Shown one piece after another: positions 401 to 43,101 of a stretch of DNA of 47,740 bases (the first letter of the stretch is position 1; each line of letters starts with the position of its first letter). The notes under the pieces were generated by a model. It made no database searches and was not told the DNA's origin. It saw only the letters and a program-made list of their open reading frames with translations. The position numbers and the translations under genes were made by a program. This DNA comes from a virus (taxonomy: Duplodnaviria > Caudoviricetes). The stretch lies in IMG/VR virus record IMGVR_UViG_3300033485_000026, positions 1 through 47,740 of that record; one strand, 5' to 3'.

Positions 401-1843
401 TCACCAACCTCGCGGTTTGCCGATGGTTCCCGCGATACGGCGCGGTGCCTTAGTCGGTGCGAGCGCGAGTGCGAGCGCATCCGACTTGTCGGGGCTTCGG
501 CCCAGACGCTTCTTGATCTCTGCTTTCGCCTCTAGGACGATCTTCCCGTTGCGTACAAGGTAACGCACGGCGCGGAGTTCAGACAGTAGTTCATCATCAG
601 CCGGCAGCGAGAGTTCCCCGCGCTCGGCGAGCAGTTTGAGGTTCCAGTACACCTCGGCGCGGCGGTTGATGAACTTCTCGGGGTGCATCGCGGTCATGCC
701 GACATTGATGCCATCGACCGGCAGTCCTGCCGATGCGAGGATGTCCACGACGCCGCCGCCGACGCCGATGTCGTCGATGCGGATACTCTCGGGGGTATCC
801 TCCGACGCCTGGTAGAACGCCTCGATGTCGTCCGCGACATGCTTCGTGCTCTTGCGCTCCCAGGACGAGAGGCCCACGACGCGGGTCCCGCGGCAGCGCC
901 AGAGGACCGTGTTGTCGTCGCCGAAGCGGGCTACGTCCACTCCCCAGTTATGGGGACCATCGACTCCAGGGGCTCCGACACATCGCCTAAGAACCATAGG
1001 GTCAATGAGTTTATCGGCACTACCAACCATCCCCCAAACACCGTCGATGTAGGCGTCCATGAGTTCAGGGGTATCGGAGTAGAGTTCCCGTATGCGTTCC
1101 TCATAGCCTGGGGGCAGGAACGTGTTATCGCGCATGAGTGACTGCACGAACGCCTCGTCGTTGTGGGGATCGTCAACCATCCGTTGCAGCCAGCAGTCCT
1201 CCGGGTTCGAGGTGATGATGACGTATCCATACTTGAGGCTCCGTTCCGATCGGCCAGGACGGGTGATGAGGAGTCTCGCCGGCGTCTCCTCGGTGTCCGA
1301 CGCCTCCTCGATGACCGCGGCGTCGAGTTCCATCGACTTCACGCGCTCCGCGTCCTCGGTCGATCCGAGGCCGCCGTACTCGATCCTGCTCCCGTTGTCA
1401 TGGCGGAAGACCATGTCGTGTTTGAGGTGCTTCCACCCGGGCCGGCTGACTATGTTGATCTGCCGGAGCATCGTGTCGAGCGTCGTGCGCGTGAACGCCT
1501 TTGCCTCGTTGCGGCACATATATACACGGAAGCCGGGGACGTGCTCGCAGGTGACCGCGGTCTTCGCGCAGACGTAGAACGACTTGCCGCCACCGACCGC
1601 CCCGCCGAACAGGACGACCGGGATTCCGCCGACAGCGCCGGTACGGGCGGCGATCTCCGCCCGCTTCTCCTCGATGACCCGGCTGCACTCGGCCTGCCGG
1701 TCGGTCCAGGTGAACTCGAGTTCCTTCGCCTGCTTGTAGCGGGCGAGGAGCATGGCGAGCGCCTCGCGCTCGGGACGGGACAGTTGCGCGATGGCCCGCT
1801 TGCGATCGGGGAGATCGAGTTCGAGGAACTCGGCTAGTTGCAC
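401..1843 (-). CDS. terL: Terminase large subunit
   Basis: Walker A GGAVGGGKS, Walker B AAVIEEASD, coupling motif TSNP, RNase H-like nuclease motifs GVDVARFGDD / RIDDIGVGGGV / SPDKSDAL. Likely GTG start at 1843 overlapping the upstream stop. Confidence 0.95.
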   Translation of the reverse strand: MQLAEFLELDLPDRKRAIAQLSRPEREALAMLLARYKQAKELEFTWTDRQAECSRVIEEKRAEIAARTGAVGGIPVVLFGGAVGGGKSFYVCAKTAVTCEHVPGFRVYMCRNEAKAFTRTTLDTMLRQINIVSRPGWKHLKHDMVFRHDNGSRIEYGGLGSTEDAERVKSMELDAAVIEEASDTEETPARLLITRPGRSERSLKYGYVIITSNPEDCWLQRMVDDPHNDEAFVQSLMRDNTFLPPGYEERIRELYSDTPELMDAYIDGVWGMVGSADKLIDPMVLRRCVGAPGVDGPHNWGVDVARFGDDNTVLWRCRGTRVVGLSSWERKSTKHVADDIEAFYQASEDTPESIRIDDIGVGGGVVDILASAGLPVDGINVGMTAMHPEKFINRRAEVYWNLKLLAERGELSLPADDELLSELRAVRYLVRNGKIVLEAKAEIKKRLGRSPDKSDALALALAPTKAPRRIAGTIGKPRGW

Positions 1844-2403
1844 GTTCTCTCCAACAGGATGAAATCGCAGATCATGTCCGGCTTCGGCGCTTCTACGATA
1901 CGCAGTATGCGGAAGTCTGGATACCTCTCCAGGTATGGAAGGAAGTCGCGGTGCCATTCCTGGGTGCCCTCCCCGTGCGGACGGGCTTCGAGCGTCGTCT
2001 GGATGAGCACCCCTTTGGATGCGTGTCCGAAGATGTCATCGAGCGTCCTCACGAACTCGCTTTCATCGCTGACGTGCATCAGGACCTCGAGGCAGATGGT
2101 CGCATCGTACATGCCCAGTCCCAGGTCGCCAGGTTCGTAGAGCGACAACTCGGCCCTCGGATGGCGCTTGCGGCACAACTCGATTGCCTTCCGTGAGACA
2201 TCCAGCCCCCGATAGACCGGGATGTGGTAGTAGGAGAGTTGGTTGCCGTCGCCGCATCCGAACTCGAGTACACTCGTCGCCCCGATCTCGGCGAGGAACG
2301 TGTTGACGACCGACGCCTTATACTCGGCGTTCTTCCCGTAACTCCCCGCTCCCGAGGTCTGCCCGGAAGCATACCGCCAGTCCCAGTAGGCGGCGTCTGT
2401 CAT
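1834..2403 (-). CDS. Class I SAM-dependent methyltransferase
   Basis: VLEFGCGDG SAM-binding motif, GLDVS, and N-terminal YWxxRY..G.TSGAGSYG as seen in glycan-cluster MTases. Confidence 0.85.
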   Translation of the reverse strand: MTDAAYWDWRYASGQTSGAGSYGKNAEYKASVVNTFLAEIGATSVLEFGCGDGNQLSYYHIPVYRGLDVSRKAIELCRKRHPRAELSLYEPGDLGLGMYDATICLEVLMHVSDESEFVRTLDDIFGHASKGVLIQTTLEARPHGEGTQEWHRDFLPYLERYPDFRILRIVEAPKPDMICDFILLERTCN

Positions 2404-3299
2404 GGGCGCACCATCGCCCGATAGTCACGCATCCAGGCATAGGTGCGCTCGATGCCTTCCTCCAGCCCGACGCTCGGGGTATGCCCTAGCGCCCGCATGT
2501 CGGAGAAATCGGCCCGCTTCACCGCCGAGACGAGGAACTCGGGCGGCTCCTCCACGCGGTAGGTGCCACGCCCCACTACCTCGATGATGATACTGGCGCA
2601 CTCCTCCATCGTCCGATATTCCTCCGTCCCGATGCAGTATGCGCGGTAGCCGTCTGCCCAGACAGGCCCATCCTCGAGAAGCAGCAGGATGCCATCGACG
2701 AAATCATCCACATAGCACCAACTCCGCACACATCCGGCGTGTGCCACGATCTCCTCGTCACGCATGGCGCGGTCGATAAAGTTCGACACCGCCGAGCGGT
2801 ACTCGCCGGCGGGGACCTCGTGCGGACCGTAGACCATAAACGGGCGGACGGAGACGGCCCGCAGTCCCTTGTAGCGCGACAGGTGCGCGATGATCCCCTC
2901 GGCTGCCAGTTTCGTGATGCCGTAGATGCCGTTCTGCTCGAGGATGTCCGGCAGACCGTACTCGCTGTTGTGCCCGTAGACCTCGGAAGTGGAGAAGTTG
3001 ACCATCCGGCATCCCGTGACCTGGCACTCGGATGCCACACGGTAGGTGCCGATGACGTTGGACGCGACCGACACGTCGGGATACATCTCCCCGTTCAGCC
3101 GCCCCACCTGTGCCGCCATGTGGATACAGACATCTGGGGCGAAGTCGGAGAACGTGCGCCTGAGCGATGCGGAGTTGTTCACGTTGGCGAAGAAATCGTC
3201 TCGGATGTCGAACCCGCGCACCTGATGACCTTCGGACAGGAGGCGCGGGACGAGCGTCTGCCCGATGACGCCGGCTGATCCGGTCACGAGTATCCTCAT
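2400..3299 (-). CDS. NAD-dependent nucleotide-sugar epimerase/dehydratase (extended SDR)
   Basis: MRILVTGSAGVIG Rossmann motif, HMAA, FSTSEVYG, catalytic YGITK, RSWCYVDD. ATG at 3299 in an ATGA overlap. Confidence 0.92.
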   Translation of the reverse strand: MRILVTGSAGVIGQTLVPRLLSEGHQVRGFDIRDDFFANVNNSASLRRTFSDFAPDVCIHMAAQVGRLNGEMYPDVSVASNVIGTYRVASECQVTGCRMVNFSTSEVYGHNSEYGLPDILEQNGIYGITKLAAEGIIAHLSRYKGLRAVSVRPFMVYGPHEVPAGEYRSAVSNFIDRAMRDEEIVAHAGCVRSWCYVDDFVDGILLLLEDGPVWADGYRAYCIGTEEYRTMEECASIIIEVVGRGTYRVEEPPEFLVSAVKRADFSDMRALGHTPSVGLEEGIERTYAWMRDYRAMVRP

Positions 3300-3985
3300 C
3301 CGGCGGGCATCCCTTCTGTGAGCGCGACCCGCATCACCTCTGCGGCCACCTTCGGTCGGTCGATGGCGTTCGTGCGTTGCCGCGGATGCTGTCTGAACGC
3401 CAGGAACGGGTCGGGAGAATAAGCGAGCGTCGGACGCTCCTTGCACCAATCTATCGCCGTCCGCATGTCGGTCGCGAGGGCCATGCTGTCCCACGCCCTC
3501 CAGCGCAGACCTCTGACCCACTTCGTCAGATATACGCCTCCTGACGGCATCGGCATCATGGGTATGCCGGCGAGGGCCGCATCCGTGAACTTGGCGAAGC
3601 AGGCGTCGGCCTCGAGCGGCCAGTCGGGGTAGCGGCGGACCCGTGTCTGGCGGCCACGCGCATCGACGAGCGCGATCGCCGCGAAGGTGTAGTCCGCCTC
3701 AGTGACGGGTGGCGGGCCGATGAGGAAGTTGTCGGCATCGACGAACACCAGACGATCAGAGGTCGCCTGCTCGATCCCGAGGTTGCTGCCCCAGACGGGG
3801 CTGCCGCTCATATCGGGGCGGTGGGTGACCTTCACCTCGGGGTAGGCGGCTGCTACCTCGAGCGAGTCGTCGGTAGAGCCATCATCGTAGAGCAGCACCT
3901 CGTCGCAATAGTGGGTCGTCGTCGAGAGGCACTCGGCCAGATAGCAGCCGTAGTCATGATTCGTGATGATGGCGGTCACGCTCAT
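3296..3985 (-). CDS. GT2/GT-A glycosyltransferase
   Basis: VTAIITNHDYGCYLAECL, YDDGSTD, FVDAD (DxD). Confidence 0.88.
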   Translation of the reverse strand: MSVTAIITNHDYGCYLAECLSTTTHYCDEVLLYDDGSTDDSLEVAAAYPEVKVTHRPDMSGSPVWGSNLGIEQATSDRLVFVDADNFLIGPPPVTEADYTFAAIALVDARGRQTRVRRYPDWPLEADACFAKFTDAALAGIPMMPMPSGGVYLTKWVRGLRWRAWDSMALATDMRTAIDWCKERPTLAYSPDPFLAFRQHPRQRTNAIDRPKVAAEVMRVALTEGMPAG

Positions 3986-4797
3986 GTCGTGTAGTCTCCC
4001 GAGAACAGTCGCGGATGGAACCCTGGCCGGTTGAGGCGGACGAGGTCATAGCGGTCGCAGGAGAGGTCGCCCGTCTCCGTCATGTGGACGCACTCCACGT
4101 CCCAGGCCGCCGCCAGGTGGTAGCCCGCGAGTTTCATGCGATAGGTGACCGAGGTGTCGTGACCGAAGGCGTTGTCGTACTCGTCCCACGGCACGGATGC
4201 GTAGACCTCAGGGCGCGATAAGACGCAGTAGACGCCCGTGGCATCCACCGGCGCGATGCCCTTGCCGGGCTTCGCCGAAGCGAGGATCGTCGGGCTCTCC
4301 ATGCCGCTTATCTGCCAGAGTCCCGGCTTGCGGAGGGCCCACCGACCGACCTCGAAACCGCAGACCCAGTCGTACCCCATCTTGATGCCGGCCAGTAGTG
4401 ACTGCCAGGTGTGGGGCGGGATCAGGGTGTCGTCCTCGAGCAGCAGGATGCGCGACACGTCCCGCGGCATCAGCCCGATCGAGGTGACCCGCATGACGGT
4501 GTGCCGGGCACGGCGGAGTCGGACCAACCTCCCGTCGTCCACCCTCTCGGAGCCGGACGCCCAGTCCGAGTAGTGGACACTGAGCGATGGCACGGGAAGC
4601 GGGGTCGCTCTCCTGACGACCGCCTCGAGGAGCGAGAGGTCGTCAGAGTCGATATAGACGGTGAGGCGGCAGCGCGAGAGCGGGACATCGGATGAGACGA
4701 GCGCATCGAAGAACCTGTCAACGCACCACTCCCGCGTGAACGGGACGAACACCCAGACATCTCCGCCGCCGTCTCTCAGTACCTCGGTCGTCCTCAA
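3982..4797 (-). CDS. Putative GT-A fold glycosyltransferase
   Basis: VFVPFTR N-terminal strand, ILLLEDD, VDATGVYC, GHD and a late WDVECVH, the typical layout of phage GT-A proteins. Lies in the sugar cluster. Confidence 0.65.
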   Translation of the reverse strand: MRTTEVLRDGGGDVWVFVPFTREWCVDRFFDALVSSDVPLSRCRLTVYIDSDDLSLLEAVVRRATPLPVPSLSVHYSDWASGSERVDDGRLVRLRRARHTVMRVTSIGLMPRDVSRILLLEDDTLIPPHTWQSLLAGIKMGYDWVCGFEVGRWALRKPGLWQISGMESPTILASAKPGKGIAPVDATGVYCVLSRPEVYASVPWDEYDNAFGHDTSVTYRMKLAGYHLAAAWDVECVHMTETGDLSCDRYDLVRLNRPGFHPRLFSGDYTT

Positions 4798-4919
4798 CGG
4801 CGCTTCCTCTTACGCTTCCTCGGGCGTGGCTTGGACCCATACTTCCTCGTCCAGCGAGCCGCGATGCGTGGATGTCGAGCCCACATGAAACGGCGGTGCT
4901 TCGCGCTGCGGAAGGGCAT
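4794..4919 (-). CDS. Small highly basic protein (41 aa), below the ORF-track cutoff
   Basis: MPFRSAKHRRFMWARHPRIAARWTRKYGSKPRPRKRKRKRR*. Start overlaps the upstream stop (TGATG) and stop overlaps the next start (TTGA). Resembles small MPFxSxxQRR-type phage ORFs. Confidence 0.75.
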   Translation of the reverse strand: MPFRSAKHRRFMWARHPRIAARWTRKYGSKPRPRKRKRKRR

Positions 4920-5908
4920 CAGACCCACCTCTCGATCGCCTCGATGCAGGCGAGCCCCGCCTTCCCGTCGCCGAAGGCATCACTCCTCGGCCCGGTCGGT
5001 CGCGACCGCACCGCGATGGCGAGGTCCTCGGGTTCGGTGAGGCGGTTCCAGCCGCCCTCGAGCGTCTCGGGCCATTCAGTCCTGTCACGCAAGGTATAGC
5101 ACGGCACCCCCGCGAAGTAACACTCCCTCGTGACCCCGCCGGAGTCGGTCACCACGCAGTACGCGCCCCGGATCAGGACGTGCATCTGTTCGTAGGTGGC
5201 GGCCTCGCAGAACACCTTGCGCTTGAACCCCATCTCGCGCATCCCCCTCATCGTGCGGTGGTGCGCCATCCAGTATACGGGGAGGGGTATATCCGAGATG
5301 CCGAGGATGCAGGCGGCCAGGCGTGGGACGTTCTCCACGTTGCTCTGGCGATGGAGGGTCACGAGGCAGTAGCCGCCGCGCTCTAATCCCCGATGCGCGA
5401 GGATGGCGGCGATCTCCCGATCGTCCACGATGCTCTCGAGGCTCGTGTAGGCGTCGAGCATCACATCGCCCGTGATGACCGAGGACAGGCCCTCCTTCCA
5501 GAGGTTCTCCGAACACGCCTTCGTCGGGGCGAGGCGGAGCGATGCCACCTTGTCGGTGAAGATTCTGTTGCGCTCCTCGGGCATGGATGGGTCCCGCGAC
5601 CGGCAGCCGGCCTCCACATGCACGACCGGGATGCCCTCTAAGGATGCCGCGGTCGCGCCGTAGACGGTGGAATCGGTGTCGCCGTAGACGATGACGGCGT
5701 TCCCGCCGAGTTCTCCCCGGAGGTGCGGGAGCGTCCAGTTCTTGCGGAGGATCACGTCGGGGCGGGGGAAGCCGCCTATCATCGCCCGATCGTAGTGCTG
5801 CCCGGTGTCGATGATGCGGTGGAGGTGTCCGAGGGTCTTGGCTGCGGCGTCTAGGACCCGCACCTTGACGTAGTTCGGGCGGGTCCCGATGACGGATGTG
5901 AGGAGCAT
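4919..5908 (-). CDS. wecB: UDP-N-acetylglucosamine 2-epimerase (non-hydrolysing)
   Basis: GTRPNYVK, DTGQHYD, YGDTDST, HVEAGCRS, MPEERNR, VTLHRQSN, TDSGG, RDRTEWPE, FGDGKAG. Confidence 0.95.
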   Translation of the reverse strand: MLLTSVIGTRPNYVKVRVLDAAAKTLGHLHRIIDTGQHYDRAMIGGFPRPDVILRKNWTLPHLRGELGGNAVIVYGDTDSTVYGATAASLEGIPVVHVEAGCRSRDPSMPEERNRIFTDKVASLRLAPTKACSENLWKEGLSSVITGDVMLDAYTSLESIVDDREIAAILAHRGLERGGYCLVTLHRQSNVENVPRLAACILGISDIPLPVYWMAHHRTMRGMREMGFKRKVFCEAATYEQMHVLIRGAYCVVTDSGGVTRECYFAGVPCYTLRDRTEWPETLEGGWNRLTEPEDLAIAVRSRPTGPRSDAFGDGKAGLACIEAIERWV

Positions 5909-7566: not shown

Positions 7567-8346
7567 TTACCCCTCCCCGAAGTCCATGATCTCCTGGTTC
7601 TCGTCCCCCGCTGGACTGCGTTCGGTATTCATCCACCAGTCGTACATGTCGTCCGAATCGTAGCGCCATCCTCCGCGCTCGAGCCCGTCGTCGATCGCAC
7701 GGTTGAGCGAGCGCCGGCAGGAGCGGCGGTAGGCGTCCGCGTACTTCGGCCACCGTTCGACATCACGCTGCCGCAAGGGGTTGTACATCATCGGACACAT
7801 GATGCAGCCGATCCGGGTGAATCCCTCGTCATAAAGCGAGCAGTACGGAAGGCCGCGGTCGCGGATGTATGCCCAGACCTCCTCGTCGGTCCAGTTGATG
7901 ATGGGATTGAGGTAGTTCTTGCGCCCGGTGTAGCAGACCTCGATCTGCCGGCGCTTGCTCCGCTTCACGGACTCCGCCCACCGGATGCCCGTGACGACCG
8001 TGCGCCCCTCCCCGCCGCGCTCCTTGAGCGCCTCGCAGCAGTAGCGGGCAACTCTCGTCGGGGGATACCGCTTCTTCACGATGAGGGCCCACATTGTCGT
8101 GTCGGCGAAGTCCCACGCGACATCGGGGTAGTGCTCGCGAATGTGCCGCCTGAGTTCGGGTGGGTCGGGGACCGAGGCGCTGTAATGGGCATCGAAGGCC
8201 ACACCGCTGCGGACGGCGAGATCGTAGATCACACTCGAGTCTTTACCGCCACTGAACGCGAGCCAGTAGCCCTCAGCGGGCTCTAACTCGCGCAGGAGTT
8301 CTATCGCCGCCTCGTCCTTCCGCTCCCCGAACAGGTCCGCGTCCAC
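7567..8346 (-). CDS. PAPS-reductase family protein
   Basis: PP-loop AFSGGKDS, RYCCEALKE, TGIRWAES, NPIINWT, LYDEGFTRIGCIMCP. Confidence 0.92.
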   Translation of the reverse strand: MDADLFGERKDEAAIELLRELEPAEGYWLAFSGGKDSSVIYDLAVRSGVAFDAHYSASVPDPPELRRHIREHYPDVAWDFADTTMWALIVKKRYPPTRVARYCCEALKERGGEGRTVVTGIRWAESVKRSKRRQIEVCYTGRKNYLNPIINWTDEEVWAYIRDRGLPYCSLYDEGFTRIGCIMCPMMYNPLRQRDVERWPKYADAYRRSCRRSLNRAIDDGLERGGWRYDSDDMYDWWMNTERSPAGDENQEIMDFGEG

Positions 8347-8705
8347 GTTCCTCCGCCCCGAGATGACCGTTCGTCGGAAAGGGTATACCTACCCCGGTAT
8401 CGGGTCAACTTTGGGTACTTGCAGGGCACGGATTCTGGTGGATGATGGATGTACCAGACGCCAGACGAGAGGGGAATCCGTGGGCCATCGCTGAACCTCC
8501 CCGGCACCTCTCCGAACCCGTCGAGCGCACAGGTGACACGCCTGCTCCGGGGCATGAATCCGCCGGGAACACAGTCTGGTCTTGTCCACCGACCCACTAG
8601 CCGTCAGAGGGCCACAGTTCGGTCATGGGTGAGGATACCGCCGCCCAGGTAGGACATCCCCACAACACCCCCGATCAGAGAAACGTGTAGCAACTCGCGG
8701 GAGGG

Positions 8706-8830
8706 GGGTAGGGGGGAGGGAATGCCTTTCGCCGCAGGTCAGCATGGTTACAGCGCCTTTCGAGTCAATAATCTGCGAGAAGGATGGTTCGCGGGGTTCC
8801 CGATCTCGCTGTGGAGTGCCCGGGGTAGGG
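8706..8830 (+). other. Three KOPS-like octamers (GGGNAGGG) pointing toward the dif-like site
   Basis: GGGTAGGG 8706-8713, GGGGAGGG 8713-8720, GGGTAGGG 8823-8830. Confidence 0.55.
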
Positions 8831-8835
8831 CCCTA

Positions 8836-8863
8836 GCATGACGTAAGGTACATTATCGCGAGT
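8836..8863 (-). other. dif-like XerC/XerD recombination site
   Basis: Minus strand reads ACTCGCGATAA-TGTACC-TTACGTCATGC (11-6-11), compared with E. coli dif GGTGCGCATAA-TGTATA-TTATGTTAAAT. Intergenic. Confidence 0.65.
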
Positions 8864-9131
8864 TCGTTTGTGCTCACGATCGGCGCTGATGTATCAACCC
8901 GGCCCCGATATACACTACCGGCCCGAATCTACCCGAACCCATGCCCGATCGTTTGCCCGGGCCGCGCCTACGATCGGTGTCAATCTACCCTGCCCCAACC
9001 CACGATCACTGATCGCTTGCGACCCTTCGGATGATGAACCCGACCCTACCATCAGCGACCCCGGCCGATGGTCCGCATGGGGCATTGTAGGGCTCGCAGG
9101 GTACCATCCGAGACGGCCGCCCGAATCATGG

Positions 9132-9160
9132 TTGACCCTGCCGATACCCGGGTATATAGT
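9132..9160 (+). promoter_or_regulatory. Sigma70/SigA-type promoter for the early block
   Basis: TTGACC-17 nt-TATAGT. Confidence 0.8.
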
Positions 9161-9272
9161 GACTGGTGTAACGATGATCGGCCCGGCCGATACGACCCCG
9201 GCCGATCGGCAACTTGATAGTCGAATATGGGAGTAGTCTCAGGGCCCCGATAGTGATTGGAGCGGGTCACTG

Positions 9273-10571
9273 ATGACACGAAAGAAGATCAGACTATGGT
9301 TGGAAGCGTACAAGTACGATGTATGGGTACCGACCCCGGGCACCGATCAACCCTGGCATGATGGCAAGTTGACCCGGGCCGATAGCAGGGTTCGGGTTGT
9401 CCCATACGATCGCCCGAAGGGTACGACCGGCCGTTGGACCGGTGGAGCGAACTACCAACCCCGAACCGGGGCCGATATGTACCGGGCCCTTGATACGTGG
9501 TTGGGCGCGAAGGGTTACCGGCCCGGGCCGGGGCATCCGAAGACGGTTGAAGTGTATCGGTTGTACCGTAATCCCGGGCAGGAGCAAATCGGGGTTCGGT
9601 TGTATTCGACTACCGTTGTGCGGGTTCATCCGAACGGGTCAATCGAACTCGACTGGTCGGGTTGGTTCACGCAAACAACCAACCGAATCATCAATGAGTA
9701 CCTGCCCCGGGATTGGTCGGTATTCGGCACCCGAATCCCGATACTGCGAGCCCCGAACGGTACCATGTACCGGGTTACCGGTTCGCTCATGATCGGACCC
9801 CGGGGTCACGTTACCCCGACCGATGGTGGCCGGTACGCATGGGCCAAACCCGGCAACTATCAGTGGTACGACCGGGCCCGAACCCCGTACCCGAACGGTA
9901 CCGAACCGTTCAAGTTCCGAAACTGGGAAGGGTATCACCAGTACGAACTCGCACTCCGGGCAACCGAACGAAAGAGCGAACGCGACCGGGCCCGGGCTGC
10001 CGCCGACCGTGAACGGGAAGACGCGGCCCGACGTGCCGAATGGGTATCGATCCGGCCGGTACGACCGAAGACGGCCCCCGGGTACGGTTGGAAATTTCTG
10101 AACCATGAGCGAACCGGCCCGGAGTTCCGGTTGGTTTCGGCGTTCGACCAGCGGTCGCACGGTTGGGGAAGCGGCCCCTATTGGCCCGAACCCGGGTCGT
10201 GGCGCGATGATGAACTCCGGGCCCCATGCGTCGGGTTGAACTGCTCGACCGACGCTGATTCGGCCGCCGGGTTCGTGAACGGTAGCGTAATCGCCCGGGT
10301 CGCATGGGCGGGCCGGTATCACGACGATTCGACCAATGGGAAGATCACCAGCGACAGCATGAGTATCCTGGCCGCATGGGTGGTCCGGGGTTCCAGCGAT
10401 ACCACGGCCGATATGTACCACGCGCCGATGGTCCGTGAACCCGATCTCATGGTTGATGGTTGGGCATGGGCCCCGGGCAAGTTGATTGCCCCGAACGGCC
10501 GCATTGACGATCTAACCCCGACCCTGCCGAAGATCGGCCCCGAACTGAACCCGTCTTTACCGAACGGGTAA
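9273..10571 (+). CDS. Hypothetical protein (432 aa), first gene of the early block
   Basis: Long ORF downstream of the promoter with SD GGAGCGG. Atypical codon usage. No family recognised. Confidence 0.75.
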   Translation: MTRKKIRLWLEAYKYDVWVPTPGTDQPWHDGKLTRADSRVRVVPYDRPKGTTGRWTGGANYQPRTGADMYRALDTWLGAKGYRPGPGHPKTVEVYRLYRNPGQEQIGVRLYSTTVVRVHPNGSIELDWSGWFTQTTNRIINEYLPRDWSVFGTRIPILRAPNGTMYRVTGSLMIGPRGHVTPTDGGRYAWAKPGNYQWYDRARTPYPNGTEPFKFRNWEGYHQYELALRATERKSERDRARAAADREREDAARRAEWVSIRPVRPKTAPGYGWKFLNHERTGPEFRLVSAFDQRSHGWGSGPYWPEPGSWRDDELRAPCVGLNCSTDADSAAGFVNGSVIARVAWAGRYHDDSTNGKITSDSMSILAAWVVRGSSDTTADMYHAPMVREPDLMVDGWAWAPGKLIAPNGRIDDLTPTLPKIGPELNPSLPNG

Positions 10572-10781
10572 CGAGTACCGGCCCGAACTACTCCCGAACG
10601 ACTATCAACCGGCCCCGGCCCCGATCAATGGGACCGGGGCCGATCTTCAATCGAACCGACCCCGACCGGGTACCCTGCCCGGCCGGGTACTCCCATGCCC
10701 GAACCCATGCGGCCCCGGTTGCCGATCTTCGGCCCGGGGCCCTACCATGCCCGGCCCCGATCGTAACCCCGGCCCTGCTCA

Positions 10782-10824
10782 TGATCGGCCCCGGGGTTGC
10801 CGATACCCTACCCGGGGCCGATCA
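10782..10824. repeat. 14-bp perfect inverted repeat (hairpin)
   Basis: TGATCGGCCCCGGG 10782-10795 / CCCGGGGCCGATCA 10811-10824. Confidence 0.85.
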
Positions 10825-11033
10825 CCGAACCGGCCCGGCCGGGGCCCCGACCCCGACCCCGACCCGGGGCCGCTGGACACCGAAGAAACTTGAAGCGCCT
10901 AGCGTTGAAGTCCGTGGGCGTGAAGTCCTTGCGCTCGCCGTCCGTGAGGCGATCGCCAGTGAAGTATCGAGAGGGACGACGGATCGTGGCGGCCGGATTG
11001 GGGGTGAGTTGGTATGGCCGACGATTGAAGTGT

Positions 11034-11062
11034 TTGACACCGGATTCCATCGGGTATACAGT
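11034..11062 (+). promoter_or_regulatory. Second sigma70/SigA-type early promoter
   Basis: TTGACA-17 nt-TACAGT. Shares CGGGTATAyAGT with the 9132 promoter. Confidence 0.8.
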
Positions 11063-11113
11063 TGTCACAATGAGGGGACCGGAGCGGACCCCCATGAGAG
11101 TTAGGAGCGGACC

Positions 11114-11326
11114 ATGCGTACACTTACCATGCGGGAACACGTCAGGGGCACTCACCCTGCCGAGTACCGCGAGCGCGAACTGTCGGCTACACGGCTCGCC
11201 GACGTTCGACGCGCTATCACCCGGGGCCGTGATCTGTTCAACGGCGGCAGGTGCGGGGCGGCCGCTATCTACTTCGAGTGGGTCACCGACGCACTCCGCG
11301 AGCGGGCCGGGGGGTGTGCCCGATGA
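11114..11326 (+). CDS. Hypothetical protein (70 aa)
   Basis: SD TAGGAGCGG. ATGA overlap with the next gene. Confidence 0.7.
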   Translation: MRTLTMREHVRGTHPAEYRERELSATRLADVRRAITRGRDLFNGGRCGAAAIYFEWVTDALRERAGGCAR

Positions 11327-11841
11327 AGTCGTATGACGCGATCGGTTACGTTCACCTGTCCGACACCTACTGCGATGGTTGTGGGGCCCGACTCATGCCG
11401 GGGCCCGACGACCCGGAGTGGTACCCGATCTTCGCCGACTCCGAGTGGGATTACATACCGGCGTGTAACGAGTGCGGTTGGCCGATCGAAGACGTGTCAC
11501 TCACGAGCGAAGGGCTCGCCTACACCCGGGCGGCCCTGCTCGGCGATTGGAACGGCGAACCCGATCATCGTGACGCATGGGTGCGGTGCTTCGACGCCAA
11601 CGGCGGGTCACTGACGCGCTACGGCTACGGTATCGGTTCTTCCGGGTGTCTGTACGATTCGGTGAGCGGCCCGTATGACACCGAAGCCGAAGCGATTGAG
11701 GCGCTACGCGAGACGATGAGCCCGACCGATGACGAGCCGACCGGGTGGACCGAAGTGGGCCCGGGATACTGGAACGGCCCCGGGATACAGACGGCCGAAG
11801 TGTTCTCATCCGACGAGCCCGGCGACGATTGGGGTGAGTGA
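11323..11841 (+). CDS. Acidic hypothetical protein with CxxC pairs (172 aa)
   Basis: MKSYDAIGY...YCDGC...PIFADSEWDY.PACNECG. SD GGGGGTG. Confidence 0.7.
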   Translation: MKSYDAIGYVHLSDTYCDGCGARLMPGPDDPEWYPIFADSEWDYIPACNECGWPIEDVSLTSEGLAYTRAALLGDWNGEPDHRDAWVRCFDANGGSLTRYGYGIGSSGCLYDSVSGPYDTEAEAIEALRETMSPTDDEPTGWTEVGPGYWNGPGIQTAEVFSSDEPGDDWGE

Positions 11842-11844
11842 ACC

Positions 11845-12129
11845 ATGCGCGAACACGTTGCCTATGTACCGGTGATCGGCTCGACGGGTATCACGCTTGG
11901 GTTGGCCGACGCCGATGAGCGCGGGTACTACCGGCTCAACTGGTGCGGAGACTACCCGACCATGCAAGCGGCCCGGAGCGCGGCCGACGAACTCAATGCC
12001 GATCTGGGAGTGACCCCGGCCGAGGCGTATGCGGTGCAAGTGTGCTCGATGTTTCGGCCGGGCGAGTTTACCGAAGTGTTGGAGTGGGTCACCCGTCCGG
12101 GTGGCCCGAGTCTACCGAAGGAGCGGTGA
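11845..12129 (+). CDS. Hypothetical protein (94 aa)
   Basis: SD GGGGTG. Tightly packed in the operon. Confidence 0.7.
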   Translation: MREHVAYVPVIGSTGITLGLADADERGYYRLNWCGDYPTMQAARSAADELNADLGVTPAEAYAVQVCSMFRPGEFTEVLEWVTRPGGPSLPKER

Positions 12130-12132
12130 GCG

Positions 12133-12435
12133 ATGAGCAGGTACTACGGCAACATACTCGGCAACCGGGGTGAGGCGACCCGGCAGGGCACGGCGTCGAG
12201 CGGGTTTCGGGCGTCGGCACGATCGTACATCGGAAGTGTGACGGTCCGACTCTGGGAGAACGATGAGGGCAAGCGCGGCCGCAAGGACTACCGCGAGCGC
12301 GACGAGATCACGATTGACGTGGGCAGGGGGTCGATGGTCGGCGGCCGTGAAGTGTTCAGGTCCGATCTGCGTTCGCTTGTTGAAGCCGTCGAAGCCGGGG
12401 CCGTGTTCCAGTTGGTGTACCCACCTGACGAGTAG
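12133..12435 (+). CDS. Hypothetical protein (100 aa)
   Basis: MSRYYGNILGNRGEATRQGT, a motif seen in phage early genes. SD AAGGAGCGG. Confidence 0.75.
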   Translation: MSRYYGNILGNRGEATRQGTASSGFRASARSYIGSVTVRLWENDEGKRGRKDYRERDEITIDVGRGSMVGGREVFRSDLRSLVEAVEAGAVFQLVYPPDE

Positions 12436-12524
12436 CCGGGCGGCACCCGGCCGAATACCCCGGGTTGAGGGGCCCGGGGTCGTGGGATAGCCGATGGGCC
12501 GCAAGCGCGGCCGGTTAGGAGCGG

Positions 12525-13175
12525 ATGAGGATGGAACCCTACGAGACTGAGAAGGTCGGACGGTTCACGATCAAGTTGTACCCCGACGAAGCCGGGAACT
12601 CGCCCCGCGACTGGGACAACCTGGGCACGATGGTATGCTGTCACCGCGACTACGATCTGGGCGACGAGAAACCGGACCCGCGCATTGATCGGATTGAAGT
12701 GCTCGTCCGGTACTACGCCGGTACGGGGGGCGAGTGGTTCCCGCTGTACCTGCTCGACCACTCCGGGTTGTGGCTCAGAACCGGCACGTTCGCTTGCGAT
12801 TCGGGTATCGGCGGGCCGGGGCCGGGTGGCGGGTGGGATACGTCACTGGTGGGCATTATCTACGTCACCCGTGAGCAGATCATCGCGGAGTACGGCGACG
12901 ACTCGGCCGAGAACCGGGCCCGGGCTCGTGAAGTGCTCCAAGCCGAAGTCAAGGTGTATTCCCAGTGGCTTGAAGGCGACGTGCGCGGATGGGTCCTTGA
13001 AGACGCCGACGGCAACACGATCGACTCGTGTTGGGGGTATTACGACGATGGGGACGCACTCGCCGACGCACGGTCGGAAGCGGCCGGGGAGATCGAGCGC
13101 GAGCGCGTCGAGAAGCAGGAGCGCGTCAAGCGGTTCATCAAGTCCGGTGTGCCGCTGATCTATCGGACGGCGTAA
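12525..13175 (+). CDS. Conserved hypothetical protein of phage/mobile-element early regions (216 aa)
   Basis: SPRDWDNLGTMVCCHRDYDLGD, PLYLLDHSGL, WDTSLVG, EVKVYSQWLEGDV, DSCWGYY. Confidence 0.8.
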   Translation: MRMEPYETEKVGRFTIKLYPDEAGNSPRDWDNLGTMVCCHRDYDLGDEKPDPRIDRIEVLVRYYAGTGGEWFPLYLLDHSGLWLRTGTFACDSGIGGPGPGGGWDTSLVGIIYVTREQIIAEYGDDSAENRARAREVLQAEVKVYSQWLEGDVRGWVLEDADGNTIDSCWGYYDDGDALADARSEAAGEIERERVEKQERVKRFIKSGVPLIYRTA

Positions 13176-13189
13176 AGGAGCGTGGAGCG

Positions 13190-13600
13190 GTGAAGGTACT
13201 AGTGGGCACGACTGAGGGGCAGGGCAAGCGGGCCAATGACTTCTCGTTCACGAACGAGTTGGAGTTGGTCGGGTTCGGGTTCGAGTGCGACGGCGAAGCG
13301 GTTGACGGCTCGTGCGGCTGTCGCCGGTCGATGGTCGGGCTCGAATCAGGCAAGGCGACGACGACCATGCGGGTAGTTGAAGCACTCACGGTTGATTCGG
13401 TCGCGGACCTTGCCGAGCGGGTGTTCGGGGGGCTCGACCGGGGCGGGTGGGTGGCGCTCATGGGCGAATCGGAAGCGCGGGAACAGGCACTCACCGACGC
13501 GCAGGAGATCGTCCGTATCGCTGACGTGTTCCCGGTCGGCACCATCGTCGAGAAGCGGGGCAACCGCTTCCAGATCAGGGAAGGAGCGGAGCAGTCATGA
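13190..13600 (+). CDS. Conserved hypothetical Cys-containing protein (136 aa)
   Basis: KVLVGTTEGQGKRANDF...CDG...GSCGCRRSMVGLESGKATTT. Resembles an actinobacterial uncharacterised family. GTG start at 13190. Confidence 0.75.
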   Translation: MKVLVGTTEGQGKRANDFSFTNELELVGFGFECDGEAVDGSCGCRRSMVGLESGKATTTMRVVEALTVDSVADLAERVFGGLDRGGWVALMGESEAREQALTDAQEIVRIADVFPVGTIVEKRGNRFQIREGAEQS

Positions 13601-13908
13601 CGATCGCGAAGTTCACCCCGGGGCCGTGGGTCAATGAGGGCTGCAACATTAGGAGTGCGGCCACCAACACGGGTATCGCGATTGTCGGTACTACGTGGGG
13701 CGACGGGGCGTTGAGCCACGATCAGAACGTGGCGAACGCCGTTCTGATCGGAGCGGCCCCGGAGTTGTACGGCGCTCTGCGGGAGTGCGTGTTCCAGTTT
13801 GGCCTACTGGAAGAAGCCGGGATGCTTGGAACCGCAGACGTGGAGGCACTCAGCGCGGCACGATCGGCATTGGCGAAGGCGGAAGGGGGCAACGGTGGAA
13901 CCCGATGA
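13597..13908 (+). CDS. Phage hypothetical protein (TPGPW / ANAxLIxAAPEL family)
   Basis: FTPGPW and ANAVLIGAAPELY motifs. Confidence 0.8.
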   Translation: MTIAKFTPGPWVNEGCNIRSAATNTGIAIVGTTWGDGALSHDQNVANAVLIGAAPELYGALRECVFQFGLLEEAGMLGTADVEALSAARSALAKAEGGNGGTR

Positions 13909-14161
13909 GATGATCTTCCCCAAGACGTTCTGGCACGTCTTCTCGCCAGATAACGACGACTATGACTTCTGGACCGACGTGGAAGATCAGGCGGAAGCGG
14001 AGTTTGACCGATGCAAGGAGCGGTTCGGGTCCGCCCGTCTCTACTCCGAGACGTACCAGACACGCGAAGACTATGACGAGATGAGAGGCCAGGAAGAACT
14101 AGAAGACTGGTGCGATCGTGACGGCGACGGCACCGATGAGGGGGTGAGTGATGGGGCATAG
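13895..14161 (+). CDS. Highly acidic small protein (88 aa)
   Basis: GTG at 13895 with upstream GGGGG. D/E-rich. Confidence 0.65.
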   Translation: MEPDEMIFPKTFWHVFSPDNDDYDFWTDVEDQAEAEFDRCKERFGSARLYSETYQTREDYDEMRGQEELEDWCDRDGDGTDEGVSDGA

Positions 14162-14190
14162 CCGACGCGCTCAGTCCTGATCGTGAGAGC

Positions 14191-14216
14191 GGCCCGGGGG
14201 TTACGGCCCCCGGGCC
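14191..14216 (+). terminator. GC-rich hairpin, possible terminator or processing site
   Basis: GGCCCGGGGG-TTACG-GCCCCGGGCC, intergenic, no U-tract. Confidence 0.4.
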
Positions 14217-14233
14217 AGATTGGAGCGGTTGCG

Positions 14234-14437
14234 ATGAGACGCAAGCCGCACGGCTACTGGACGACGTGCCGCCGGTGCGGACGGCCGGTGTGGACCAGCG
14301 GGGGCATCATCGGCGGGGCCGCGCTGTACGAGCGGTACGGCCGTATCTGCGACGAGTGCATCACCCCCGATGAGGAACACGCGATACTTCACGGGCAAGC
14401 CGGTGACCTGATCGGCCGGGCAGGTGGAGCGAAGTGA
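14234..14437 (+). CDS. Small zinc-finger-like protein (67 aa)
   Basis: CRRCG...ICDEC. SD GGAGCGG. Confidence 0.7.
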   Translation: MRRKPHGYWTTCRRCGRPVWTSGGIIGGAALYERYGRICDECITPDEEHAILHGQAGDLIGRAGGAK

Positions 14438-14526
14438 AGCGGGAACTGCTCGCCGACGTGCTCACCCTTGCCCTGCTCGCGGTGTGCTTCTACCTGACCT
14501 ACTGTCTGCTCGCCACGATGAAGTGA
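14434..14526 (+). CDS. Small membrane peptide (30 aa)
   Basis: VKRELLADVLTLALLAVCFYLTYCLLATMK*. GTGA and TGATG overlaps with its neighbours. Confidence 0.55.
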   Translation: MKRELLADVLTLALLAVCFYLTYCLLATMK

Positions 14527-14936
14527 TGGGAGTTGAAGTCCTGATGGGTGACTTGATAACGGTTGCACGGGCCGCTCGTGAACTTGGAGTCGAGCGCCAG
14601 ACGGCGTATCGGTACATCAAGTGCGGCCGGCTGCCGGCCCGGGAGATCGCCGGCCGGCTCGTGGTCGATGCGGACGATCTTGAAGCCGTGCGCGTCGGCG
14701 TCCGCGGATGGCCCCCGGTCCACAAACCGGACAAGCGCGAGTGGACGAAGGCGATGGTTCGCCTGCGCTCGCGCCAGTGGAACGACGCGGTTGAGTCGGG
14801 CCTATTCGACGATCCGATCACCGGGGAGATCGACCCCGGGCTCATAGCCGCGTGGGAGATCGAGCACGGCTGGACACATGAAGAACTACGGCACATGGCC
14901 GAGAAGATCGTCACTCCACGCGACCCGTTTCAGTGA
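14526..14936 (+). CDS. Xis/MerR-like helix-turn-helix DNA-binding protein
   Basis: LITVARAARELGVERQTAYRYIKCGRLPA. Start at 14526 or 14544. Confidence 0.8.
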   Translation: MGVEVLMGDLITVARAARELGVERQTAYRYIKCGRLPAREIAGRLVVDADDLEAVRVGVRGWPPVHKPDKREWTKAMVRLRSRQWNDAVESGLFDDPITGEIDPGLIAAWEIEHGWTHEELRHMAEKIVTPRDPFQ

Positions 14937-14947
14937 GAGGAGAGCCG

Positions 14948-15145
14948 ATGCTGAGGCCCGATCAGATCACCGATGTTGAAGTCCTGCGCCACGCCGTCGC
15001 GCTGCTCGCGGAAGAAGCCGCGGACGTTGGGTGCGACCGCTGTTGTGCGAGCGCCCTATGCGCGATAGGCGAGGACCAGGATGAGGAGTGCGCCGTCACG
15101 ATCGCGTCGTGGGCCGTGACGGTCGCTGAGGAGGAACCCGCATGA
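14948..15145 (+). CDS. Hypothetical protein (65 aa)
   Basis: SD GAGGAG. Cys cluster CDRCC. Confidence 0.6.
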   Translation: MLRPDQITDVEVLRHAVALLAEEAADVGCDRCCASALCAIGEDQDEECAVTIASWAVTVAEEEPA

Positions 15146-15207
15146 TGAAGTGGCTGGAACGGCTCATAGACCGGCTCACGATCGCCTTCTGGAAGGGGAC
15201 GCGATGA
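15142..15207 (+). CDS. Possible 21-aa peptide
   Basis: MMKWLERLIDRLTIAFWKGTR*. SD GAGGAGG and ATGA overlaps at both ends. Confidence 0.45.
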   Translation: MMKWLERLIDRLTIAFWKGTR

Positions 15208-15656
15208 GAACGACAAGTCCTGAGACGATAGTTGAAGTCCTGGCGGGCCAATGCCTCACCGGGGCGGTGATGCTCCCGAACGGGATGCTCGGGCTCCTGT
15301 TCGACGACGGGCACCTGCTCGCCGTGAGCGAGAAACTCTATCTGATGCACGAAGGCCCGGCCGCCGATGTGCTTGTGGCCGCGCAGGATCGTCTGAGAGA
15401 CGCGAAGGCGGAACTGGCGACCCTGGACTCGTTCATGGGATTACCGGCCGTCTCAGAGCCTTCTGTGCGCGAGAGGGCCACACGGATGCGGGACGATGCC
15501 GCGATCCATACGCCACGGCGGAAGATTGAAGCCGTGTTGGGTGAAGTCCCTGAGCCTGAGTTCATCGGCGACGACCATCCCGGCCTCGAGATGGACGACG
15601 TTCAGAAGCGGGCGCGGCTCGAGAAGGCCAGCCGCGGCGTACCGGACGTACTGTGA
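15204..15656 (+). CDS. Hypothetical protein (150 aa)
   Basis: ATG at 15204 with SD AAGGGG. Operon packing. Confidence 0.65.
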   Translation: MRTTSPETIVEVLAGQCLTGAVMLPNGMLGLLFDDGHLLAVSEKLYLMHEGPAADVLVAAQDRLRDAKAELATLDSFMGLPAVSEPSVRERATRMRDDAAIHTPRRKIEAVLGEVPEPEFIGDDHPGLEMDDVQKRARLEKASRGVPDVL

Positions 15657-15910
15657 TGAGCGACTACACCCACGACGATGCGATGCGTGTTGAGGCGATT
15701 GCGGCGTTGACCGCCATACAACTCGTGTCGGCCTTCGATGTCGTCCCCGTATTCGCCTACATCGAGCGGCTGGAAGCGGAGAAGCGGTGGCTGGCGGAGG
15801 AGATGGCGGGTGCGCTCAACGGCGATACCGTGGTTTACAGCGACGGACGGCGAATGGGGACGGCTACACAGTGGCTCGATGCCGCCCAGGAAGCGGTGAG
15901 GAAGGGCTAG
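15653..15910 (+). CDS. Hypothetical protein (85 aa), paralogue of 6655..6996
   Basis: Shared motifs YTHDDAMR, IERLEAE, RWLA, AQEAVR. Stop overlaps the convergent stop at 15907. Confidence 0.7.
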   Translation: MMSDYTHDDAMRVEAIAALTAIQLVSAFDVVPVFAYIERLEAEKRWLAEEMAGALNGDTVVYSDGRRMGTATQWLDAAQEAVRKG

Positions 15911-16344
15911 TCCTGGCGCTCCCGCGCCTCTTTGGGAGCCTCGACCGCGACCCTCGAGAGGATGCTCTCGACCTCGCGGGCGAGGCTCTCGGCGTCTGTC
16001 GAGACGGTGCTCGAGATGTCCGTGGCCTCTCCGCGGATCAGGCGGAGTTTGTCGAACGCGATGCCGGCACCGATGAGCGCGTCCCGAGGGCTCATATCCT
16101 CGATCTTGGCCCGGGCGACCTGGAGGCATGAATCATGAAGTTCCTGCCACCACGCCTCTTGCCGCTTCTTGGCGATCAAGAGGTACTCCTGGCGCTGATC
16201 CTCGTTGAGCGCGTTCCACCACTTCTCGAGCGTCCGGCGCGGGATGCCCGTCGCGGATGAAGCCTTGCGGGTGGAACCGTCGAGCCTCGCGACCTCGATC
16301 AGGAGTTCGCTCTTGTCGATGTCGGAGTAGACGCGGCTCATCAT
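15907..16344 (-). CDS. HTH protein, probable terminase small subunit
   Basis: N-terminal HTH (ASSATGIPRRTLEKW) plus helical GIAFDKLRLIRGEAT segment typical of TerS-like proteins. No other TerS candidate seen. Confidence 0.5.
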   Translation of the reverse strand: MMSRVYSDIDKSELLIEVARLDGSTRKASSATGIPRRTLEKWWNALNEDQRQEYLLIAKKRQEAWWQELHDSCLQVARAKIEDMSPRDALIGAGIAFDKLRLIRGEATDISSTVSTDAESLAREVESILSRVAVEAPKEARERQD

Positions 16345-18764: not shown

Positions 18765-19682
18765 CTACTCCTGGGAGTCGATCAGGGACCCCTGCACCCC
18801 CTCGTCCCCCTCCACGACCTCACCCTCGAGTGCAACCTCAGTTTCGTCTACGTCGTCAGGGGAACCCTCGAGTACGGCTCCAAGCGCCTCCGGCTCGACC
18901 TTCTCGTCCTCGTGGTCGGGGAGCAGCACCATGTCAGGCACCAGTTCCCGGCGCACCGTCCCATCACTGGCGATCGCCCGCTGGACCTCTGCCGAGAGCG
19001 GCAGCATCTTACACAGGCGGATCACGACCGTCTTCTTCGCCATCTCGACCGCCCCGAGGTCGTCGCTCCACGGTGATACCTTCCAGCCGCGGGAGTAGCG
19101 GTTGCGGTGCTTCACGATCTCATCCTTCGTCATGACCGCGAACTGCGTCTCACCCGTCGCCAGCCGTGCCACCGCATAGACCGCCCCGAGGTTCTCGAAC
19201 GAGCCGCGGTCAACCGACCACTCGGGTTCGTGGACGATCTGCGGGTTCGTCCCCATGACCACCTTGAAGATGTCGCCCTCGTAGACCGCCTCGGCCCAGA
19301 GCGCCGTCACGTCACCCGAGTTCCGGGCCAACTTCACGACGCCCTTGTAGCCCATCTGGAACGTCGCCTCGTGCTTGTACGGGATGATGTACGCCTCGCC
19401 CAGACCGCTCCCAGGCTCGAGGCCGAGTTGTGCCGACTGCATCGTCGCCGCGAGGATGCTCATAGGGTCGCACGACAGCAGGTCGGGGTTCGTCCGCACC
19501 GTGGTCAGCACGATGCGCGTGAACCGATCCACGTCGATGTTGCGCGGTAGCGCCGACATGATGGCCGGCTTCTGGCGCTCCAGATACGTCGCGATCGTCA
19601 TGCTCTTTGGGCTGCCGGCGGCCTGTTCCTGTGTCGCGAGCGCCGCCTTCGTCCCCTCGTTCGATGCTGTTCTCGGATTCAT
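18765..19682 (-). CDS. recT: RecT-family single-strand annealing recombinase
   Basis: SAQLGLEPG.GLGEAYIIPY, FQMGYKG, VYEGD, PW...EMAKKTV. Confidence 0.95.
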   Translation of the reverse strand: MNPRTASNEGTKAALATQEQAAGSPKSMTIATYLERQKPAIMSALPRNIDVDRFTRIVLTTVRTNPDLLSCDPMSILAATMQSAQLGLEPGSGLGEAYIIPYKHEATFQMGYKGVVKLARNSGDVTALWAEAVYEGDIFKVVMGTNPQIVHEPEWSVDRGSFENLGAVYAVARLATGETQFAVMTKDEIVKHRNRYSRGWKVSPWSDDLGAVEMAKKTVVIRLCKMLPLSAEVQRAIASDGTVRRELVPDMVLLPDHEDEKVEPEALGAVLEGSPDDVDETEVALEGEVVEGDEGVQGSLIDSQE

Positions 19683-19690
19683 GTCGCTCC

Positions 19691-19948
19691 TCACCTCCTG
19701 ATGATGAACAGTCTGCTGTCAATCACGTCCAACTTGAACTTCGTCAGATAGCCGCTGATGACCTCGCGCTCCGCCAGGTGCATCTTGCCCATCTGCTGTG
19801 CCGTCCACGGATCGTTGTACTCATGTCCGACGATCTCGGCATACGGCTCGAGGCTGATGTCGAACTCGTCGAAGATGTCGAACCACTCCTGGGAACTGTT
19901 CTGCCCGATCTTGCGCCGAGGCAGGTTCGGCAACGCCTCCATCCTCAC
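19691..19948 (-). CDS. Hypothetical protein (85 aa)
   Basis: Coupled between yqaJ and recT. Confidence 0.65.
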   Translation of the reverse strand: MRMEALPNLPRRKIGQNSSQEWFDIFDEFDISLEPYAEIVGHEYNDPWTAQQMGKMHLAEREVISGYLTKFKLDVIDSRLFIIRR

Positions 19949-41402: not shown

Positions 41403-41410
41403 CGCGCCCC

Positions 41411-42542: not shown

Positions 42543-42551
42543 CGGCTTCCC

Positions 42552-43031: not shown

Positions 43032-43101
43032 CTCATCTCCTTGCTCTCGCCGGGCGGGTGTCTTCTCTGGCGCTAGACTACACCGCCCTGGAACGGGTGT
43101 G

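Follow-up and report, generated by a model that had tools for sequence, protein, structure and literature searches.

Introduction

On bacterial chromosomes, FtsK loads at FtsK-orienting polar sequences (KOPS), travels to dif, halts at bound XerCD and activates XerD, as described in PMC3130261 and PMC5357621. The KOPS octamer GGGNAGGG is documented in E. coli, V. cholerae and P. aeruginosa; Firmicutes use different words (PMC3384302). KOPS polarity has been described for chromosomes and large replicons (PMC3384302, PMC11724359). Hijacking of the Xer system has been described for non-tailed phages, islands and plasmids (PMC12715192, PMC5357621, PMC11724359); the integrative mobile elements exploiting Xer recombination (IMEXs) named in PMC12715192 and PMC5357621 are non-tailed phages or islands, and are found integrated at dif according to these sources and PMC7062461. 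Here we describe a 28-bp dif-like site and the KOPS-type octamers converging on it in a tailed-phage genome of 47,740 nucleotides, IMG/VR record IMGVR_UViG_3300033485_000026, the full length of which is referred to as the window.

In plasmid Xer sites of the cer/psi type, the XerC arm is flanked by an accessory stretch (PepA/ArgR/ArcA) of about 200 bp, and in phage P1 Cre/loxP circularises the incoming DNA, with loxP lying near pac. P1 Cre/loxP is also reported to resolve multimers site-specifically on the phage's own genome (PMC10999674). No tailed phage with both dif and KOPS was encountered among the titles and abstract openings listed by the literature searches, a coverage outside which most subscription papers lie.

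Identification of the dif-like site

The first-pass annotation of the window had proposed an intergenic dif-like 28-mer, ACTCGCGATAA-TGTACC-TTACGTCATGC, and this sequence was recovered at 8836-8863 on the minus strand, with a predicted XerC arm at 8863-8853, the spacer at 8852-8847 and a predicted XerD arm at 8846-8836. Searching the 47.7 kb with the actinobacterial dif core CCGATAA-N6-TTATGTCA of Kono et al. (PMC3025954), which may not be that of the host, returned the site, with two mismatches, as the single match. Comparison with shuffled DNA, named as a check in the annotation, gave a mean of 0.01 matches, with 1 of 100 shuffles reaching one match. A weight matrix derived from five plasmid sites likewise placed the site on top, at 17.4 bits, with the runner-up at 12.1 bits; the plasmid sites had themselves been found with the site of a relative, G004, and the score of the G004 site on this matrix is therefore circular.

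A terminase search revealed six loci, one of which (L001) is the same phage and another (L006) stops short of the region. Conservation in relatives, likewise named as a check, was found in three of the four terminase relatives spanning the locus, with the site at the same place and in the same orientation in G002 (ACGCACGATAA-TCGGTA-TTATGTCATGC), G003 (GTGTATGGTAA-TGCCTC-TTATGTCATGC) and G004 (AGGCCCGATAA-TGTAGG-TTATGTCATGC). A RecT search, in which 80 of 597 loci were kept from 8 of 64 database parts, contributed one new and close record, G005, a complete 46-kb phage having RecE/RecT and a glycosyltransferase in common with the window, and giving no TerL or capsid tblastn match and no blastn match at this locus. 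One site, ATGTCTGATAA-TACATC-TTATGTACAGC, was found in it, between divergent early and late genes. Among the records compared, the window and G005 are the only complete genomes.

Over the five phage sites, mean pairwise identity was 0.85 in the XerD arm, 0.64 in the XerC arm and 0.40 in the spacer, and 0.29-0.37 in the 40-bp flanks (0.29 on the XerC side). The XerD arm is thus better conserved than the XerC arm and the spacer, which differs in all five phages, is not conserved; this is the pattern by which Xer sites are recognised in PMC11724359. The inner palindrome was present, TAA-N6-TTA being invariant in 5/5 sites and the fourth inner pair broken in the window and G003, and the site is a single intergenic copy above background. 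In a control set of 78 unrelated RecT-phage loci (1.2 Mb) one dif-like match was detected. This sole control match lies near 10115 of L073, an unrelated RecT-bearing phage locus.

Scanning viral sequences with the dif pattern gave 26 loci, comprising two known relatives and 24 unrelated ones that were treated as chance. With the G004 site as blastn query, six short matches were obtained against cultured phages, and all eight plasmid matches fell in unannotated stretches of Actinomycetota plasmids. The five plasmid loci examined (L051-L055) proved to be intergenic dif-like sites, one of them sharing its spacer with the window. Set against a dif-like site of a Clavibacter plasmid, the window site differs at 5 of 28 positions, the spacers being identical. 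The L051-L055 sites (about 2497-2531) are single and unannotated on actinobacterial plasmids of 78-418 kb, two of them beside toxin-antitoxin genes, and their spacers differ from chromosomal dif. We regard the 28-mer of the window as a real feature and, judged from its sequence, as a predicted XerCD site with exact 11-6-11 geometry.

Octamer polarity at the site

The GGGNAGGG octamers of the first-pass annotation were located as given, at 8706, 8713 and 8823 on the plus strand and at 8988, 10673 and 10806 on the minus strand, and the 5-bp distance separating the 8823 octamer from the XerD-like arm was confirmed. This nearest octamer (GGGTAGGG, 8823-8830, plus strand) is aimed at the site, as are two overlapping octamers, GGGTAGGG and GGGGAGGG, in a G-run at 8706-8720 (plus strand), 115-122 bp off. 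Homologous G-runs occur in G002 and G004, where they contain octamers, and in G001, where no full octamer is present; G001 is also without the site, a coincidence seen in this one case. On the XerC side, GGGCAGGG (8988-8995, minus strand) is aimed at the site from a distance of 124 bp, and two near-KOPS heptamers of the form GGNAGGG (9044-9050 and 9136-9142, minus strand) have the same aim, the second overlapping the -35 box of the predicted early promoter.

The polarity had been described as extending over 2.1 kb, which was not confirmed, since a plus-strand octamer at 9925, pointing away from the site, had been missed between 8988 and 10673. Convergent and divergent GGGNAGGG octamers in the window stood at 4:0 within 500 bp, 4:1 within 1 kb, 6:3 within 2.2 kb and 7:6 within 5 kb, and the genome-wide count of 8 convergent and 10 divergent revealed no replicon-wide skew. 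At 2.2 kb, control words were more polar than GGGNAGGG, for example GGGTNGGG with 11:0. The octamers at 10673 and 10806 were rejected as members of the module, the polarity being gone beyond about 1 kb and the divergent 9925 octamer intervening. The real module spans approximately 8700-9050, about 0.4 kb.

Within 300 bp of the site, the five phages together have 12 convergent and no divergent GGGNAGGG octamers against 0.42 expected, placing this word at rank 1 of 14,297 octamer patterns, with all four bases occurring at the N position. The local polarity flip claimed at the outset was thus upheld at this range and lost at the kilobase scale. A convergent octamer is present on the XerD side in 5/5 phages, and the orientation inverts at the site, with a full octamer on both sides in three of the five and GGNAGGG on both sides in four. 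For the first four phages, GGGNAGGG gave 10:0 within 300 bp (rank 1 of 11,526 patterns), kept rank 1 at 500 and 1000 bp, and was 14th at 2 kb. Upon removal of the shared G-run, it stood at 5:0 in three phages (P of 0.0008, 0.0008 and 0.0096 with 2-, 3- and 4-let shuffles, respectively); 13 patterns then tied with or beat it, and GGNAGGG, at 10:0 in all four close phages, was rank 1 of 7,233.

G005 was examined once the radius was already fixed. It has five octamers in 46 kb, two of which lie on either side of the site, 50 and 37 bp away from its arms, both convergent, an arrangement found at 0 of 9,029 other positions. As controls, the 24 unrelated viral dif-pattern matches and the five actinobacterial plasmid sites were inspected, and no octamer was found within 300 bp of any of them.

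Recombinase genes and search for integrated forms

In line with the first-pass annotation, which had seen no recognisable integrase, no tyrosine or serine recombinase family was detected; profile searches gave no match to PF00589 in six records, to PF07508 in five and to PF00239 in one, and the phage shares with IMEXs the lack of a recombinase of its own. The partition system and immunity repressor of a phage-plasmid were not found either: ParB_N was absent from five records and ParA from 72 scanned open reading frames, HTH_3 gave no match above the cut-off in five records (one weak match in G005), and no CI-type repressor was seen at the divergent promoter.

Seven sequencing runs were examined, and in five of them (X1-X5, from three studies) contigs cross the site unbroken. 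A phage-host junction at the site, which the annotation had proposed to look for, was not seen in the contigs of these five runs; the only record touching the spacer, from X2 (8851-8886), was dissimilar to the window on both sides. A scan of GTDB with TerL gave only four distant loci of 27-28% identity and no close or prophage relative, a metagenome scan (34 of 64 parts) gave at least one locus, already known, and close TerL and RecT homologues were all on contigs of at most 47,740 bp. Regarding the host, homologue and cluster look-ups returned no usable taxon for close relatives, cultured phages matched weakly and the plasmid loci contained no relatives leading to a host; the amidase and the Dit/Tal tail suggest a monoderm.

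These data bear on the possibility that the site is an attP, by which the phage, as a tailed IMEX, would integrate at host dif via XerCD, with the octamers helping FtsK on the incoming circle or at prophage junctions. The absence of a recombinase family, the single intergenic site and a conserved excisionase-like helix-turn-helix (HTH) gene are in its favour, the window spacer begins with TGT as in many actinobacterial dif sites (PMC3025954), IMEXs with divergent spacers exist, as reported for VGJ-phi (PMC5357621) and gokushoviruses (PMC7062461), and contigs lose rare junctions. It is opposed by the examined contigs, in which no attL or attR junction was found and the X2 record was unlike the window on both sides, and by the lack of a prophage relative in the GTDB scan, of long host contigs and of a CI-type repressor at the divergent promoter. 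Furthermore, the XerD-side triplets of the five phage spacers (ACC, GTA, CTC, AGG and ATC) match none of the common actinobacterial endings among the table rows covered, which are mostly ACA, also ACG and ATA (PMC3025954), an argument valid only with an actinobacterial-like host; the triplets of the five plasmid sites likewise match no common actinobacterial ending. Integration at host dif is, in our view, possible but somewhat unlikely.

Proposed mechanism

Dimer resolution and integration had initially been put forward side by side. The five differing spacers with their XerD-side triplets, the unbroken contigs, the lack of a prophage relative in the GTDB scan, the lack of contigs longer than the genome among those with close homologues, and the absence of ParB and of above-cut-off HTH_3 matches lean, as far as sequences can tell, towards a partner on the phage's own genome rather than on the host's. 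We propose, at somewhat better than an even chance, that host XerC and XerD, switched on by host FtsK, recombine copies of this genome, with the module acting as a miniature chromosome terminus. What survives of the earlier interpretation, having stood up to the relatives, the pattern ranking, the shuffles and the G005 test, is a dif-like XerCD site with converging FtsK-type octamers.

In the proposed sequence of events, XerC and XerD would bind the two arms, and FtsK would load at the nearby octamers, run a few dozen to a few hundred bases, halt at the bound site and activate XerD, the XerD-side octamer common to all five phages being suitably placed. Crossover would need matching spacers, and a sister copy would be the favoured partner because each phage has its own spacer. 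The product would be monomer circles, derived from RecET-made dimers or catenanes of a replicating or carried circle; such multimers probably arise through the RecT and RecE/YqaJ recombination genes (18765-20925, minus strand), which the window has in common with G005. Alternatively, a closed or joined genome would result if the site lay within a terminal redundancy. Being without replichores, the phage presumably brings along loading signals of its own next to its site.

Several observations weigh against this proposal. The closely related G001 (87% TerL identity) is without the site in its 11.8-kb fragment, where the best score was 5.1 bits, and the XerD-like arm of the window has C at position 4, where the other four phages have T, a placement found in none of the eight TTACGT rows of the table of Kono et al. 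(PMC3025954). Five of the ten octamers of the four close phages sit in one homologous G-run, overlapping G-rich patterns rank just under GGGNAGGG, and the 300-bp radius was picked after the data were seen. B. subtilis and L. lactis are reported to use other words (PMC3384302, PMC5357621), as may the host here. Gokushovirus dif motifs vary in the spacer and integrate anyway (PMC7062461), the window may itself derive from runs X1 and X2, and the loss of rare junctions from contigs applies here as well. Finally, a lytic phage wants concatemers, the gain from resolving them is not obvious, and no partition system was detected to support a plasmid state (ParB_N, as above).

Divergent spacers would also be compatible with a decoy or docking site, which is free to drift there; phage DNA in many copies would titrate XerCD/FtsK, thereby delaying host division, become tethered to the septum, or strip SMC complexes of the host from DNA. 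With many small early genes and no repressor or ParB found, the gene set has a virulent look, and XerD is reported to unload SMC at dif in B. subtilis (PMC13342612). Yet there is one copy per genome, of exact 11-6-11 geometry and with both arms kept in five phages, and neither the 6-bp spacing nor convergent octamers on both sides would be needed for such a role, which makes it doubtful.

Genomic context and genome ends

The window is a siphovirus genome with terminase, portal, SPP1-like head genes, a Dit/Tal/tape-measure tail, an amidase, RecE/RecT and many sugar-modifying genes. The source record is graded linear and 67% complete. The separate contig L001, 99.9% identical, bridges the end of the window to its start via a 9-nt overlap and restores an open portal frame of 462 aa (469-473 aa in relatives), from which it follows that the window maps as a complete circle of 47,731 bp. 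The dif-like site is placed between the late block (minus strand, toward the terminase) and the small early genes (plus strand, 9273-15910). On its XerD side lies the gene for the terminase large subunit (401-1843, minus strand; PBSX/SPP1-like families), the marker used for finding relatives. The early block starts on the XerC side with a predicted sigma70-like promoter (9132-9160, plus strand, 10/12 match) about 270 bp from the site; the promoter search found three such sequences against 0.9 in shuffles. Homologues of the first early gene (9273-10571, plus strand, 432 aa) adjoin the site in G002 and G004 at about 26-35% identity; the gene had no Pfam or NCBIfam match and no usable atlas match, and a lone search with it gave no loci. 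Scanning with the HTH gene revealed no additional relative.

A 145-aa gene at 15907-16344 (minus strand) is 67% identical in G004 and has an HTH-like start and no library match; it resembles a small terminase subunit and may be one. In that case the dif module and the entire early region would lie between terS and terL. The PAPS-reductase-family gene at 7567-8361 is cleanly missing in an X4 variant contig (794-nt skip) and is thus an accessory gene that comes and goes. Large and variable sets of glycosyltransferase, epimerase, methyltransferase and acetyltransferase genes lie near the terminase and capsid genes (1834-5908 and 39556-44343; G001-G005) and possibly serve virion glycosylation. A 44-codon highly basic peptide is encoded at 4794-4928 (minus strand), and G001, G002 and G003 have homologues of it upstream of their terminase genes.

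A conserved non-coding block at 8594-8726, on the XerD side, shows 72-82% DNA identity in three relatives and a weaker one in the fourth, and is a candidate packaging or terminus signal. Its reading as a structured RNA was rejected, there being no Rfam match and covariation in just 3 of 27 pairs. Short matches to the block occur in other contigs of runs X2, X6 and X7; therefore, further relatives are present in these samples.

The palindrome could be an operator where the early and late blocks diverge, bound by a regulator of phage or host origin, with the octamers as by-products of packaging-signal G-runs: it lies between divergent gene blocks close to the predicted promoter, part of the octamer signal is within the conserved G/C-run block, and G001 does without the site. 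However, the asymmetric conservation of the arms fits dif and not a symmetric operator, the plasmid matches of the G004 site (8/8 on Actinomycetota plasmids) were intergenic dif-like sites in the five cases examined, and the octamer excess remains once the block is taken out and is also seen in G005, a phage without that block. We consider an operator quite improbable.

A shift in base composition accompanies the early region. AG/CT depletion sets in near 8834 and is gone at around 14 kb. The early regions of the window, G002 and G004 are poor in AGG/CCT, and CCTC/GAGG depletion is strongest in these three; the AGG/CCT loss is not seen in G001, which is without the dif-like site. In the window the shift affects both strands at 8860-14000 and is strongest at 8880-10870, with no CCTC/GAGG in 1,990 bp and AGG/CCT at about one third of expectation, and CCGG, GGCC and TACC are strongly enriched in the same region. 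The pattern resembles that of DNA which enters first and avoids a target of host defence. Among the window, G003 and G004, the palindromes avoided genome-wide are not the same: the window has 2 AGCT against 105 expected, and G003 has no CCGG and no GATC, which suggests that the restriction systems of their hosts differ. The shift starts several hundred bases from the site in G002 and G004, and its exact coincidence with the site in the window is therefore not to be over-read.

The composition gradient suggests that this DNA enters first and that a genome end may lie near the block at 8594-8726. An X3 unitig over 8621-9042, of depth 12.8 compared with 3-7 nearby, was rejected as evidence for a terminal repeat because the path of another strain (depth 4.4) merges with it at 8621. 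Pac phages are reported to circularise via redundant ends (PMC5557969). Were the site inside a terminal redundancy, beside the conserved block as the putative packaging or terminus signal, both ends of the incoming linear genome would bear a dif-like site, through which host XerCD-FtsK would circularise it or join it head to tail; this would explain the octamers within 300 bp on both sides, each end copy having one short flank, and the site's position at the edge of the composition-shifted early region. We put this forward tentatively, as an unlikely variant.

The suggestion of the first-pass annotation that FtsK is recruited to the first-entering DNA end, pulling the genome into the cell, draws on the same border of the early region, likely the first to enter, and on three octamers directed from the presumed end towards the interior. 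The octamer that follows has the opposite direction, polarity is absent over the whole genome (8:10), and the three inward octamers reach the dif-like site within 5-122 bp (5-260 bp for inward-pointing octamers as a group). An entry motor is thus extremely unlikely, as these octamers lead straight into a site of the kind at which FtsK reportedly stops (PMC3130261).

Significance and comparison with known systems

If recombination of the phage's own genome by host XerCD/FtsK is true, tailed phages with differing head genes, and with no repressor or partition system found, tie their DNA processing to the septal motor of the host, and keep a compact dif and KOPS cassette at non-homologous positions. 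Such a cassette offers a 0.4-kb testable minimal terminus and would allow the KOPS word of hosts not in culture to be deduced from phage genomes; it also cautions against calling integrase-less phages free of site-specific recombination. With the site in a terminal redundancy, a P1-like Cre/loxP job would be handed to the host division machinery.

With the chromosomal dif/XerCD/FtsK-KOPS system of E. coli and V. cholerae and with actinobacterial dif (PMC3025954), the locus shares the 28-bp 11-6-11 layout, an actinobacterial-type core and GGGNAGGG polarity that inverts at the site. Unlike there, the module is on a 47.7-kb phage, and its polarity covers less than 300 bp per side, without replichore-wide bias; octamers occur at about 1 per 250 bp (12 in 3 kb), compared with 1 per 11.6 kb reported for the E. 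coli dif region (PMC3384302). The FtsK-dependent Xer sites of large plasmids (R27; replicons above 250 kb; PMC11724359, PMC13342612) resemble it in having a spacer unlike the chromosomal one and in that host XerCD likely resolves the replicon's own multimers, whereas the phage replicon is far smaller, viral and without a detected partition system. The actinobacterial plasmid sites L051-L055 likewise have non-chromosomal spacers and likely use host XerCD, and differ in that none of the five has an octamer within 300 bp.

The IMEXs, comprising CTX-phi, VGJ-phi, TLC-phi, the gonococcal genetic island, enterogokushoviruses and dif-type double jelly-roll phages, have in common with the phage a dif-like site and the lack of an own recombinase; here, in contrast, the carrier is a tailed siphovirus of which no integrated form was seen, with a near-consensus XerD arm and its own KOPS cluster. 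P1 Cre/loxP is similar as a site-specific system working on the phage's own genome; P1 brings its own recombinase and partition system, while the recombinase and activator proposed for the present module would be those of the host.

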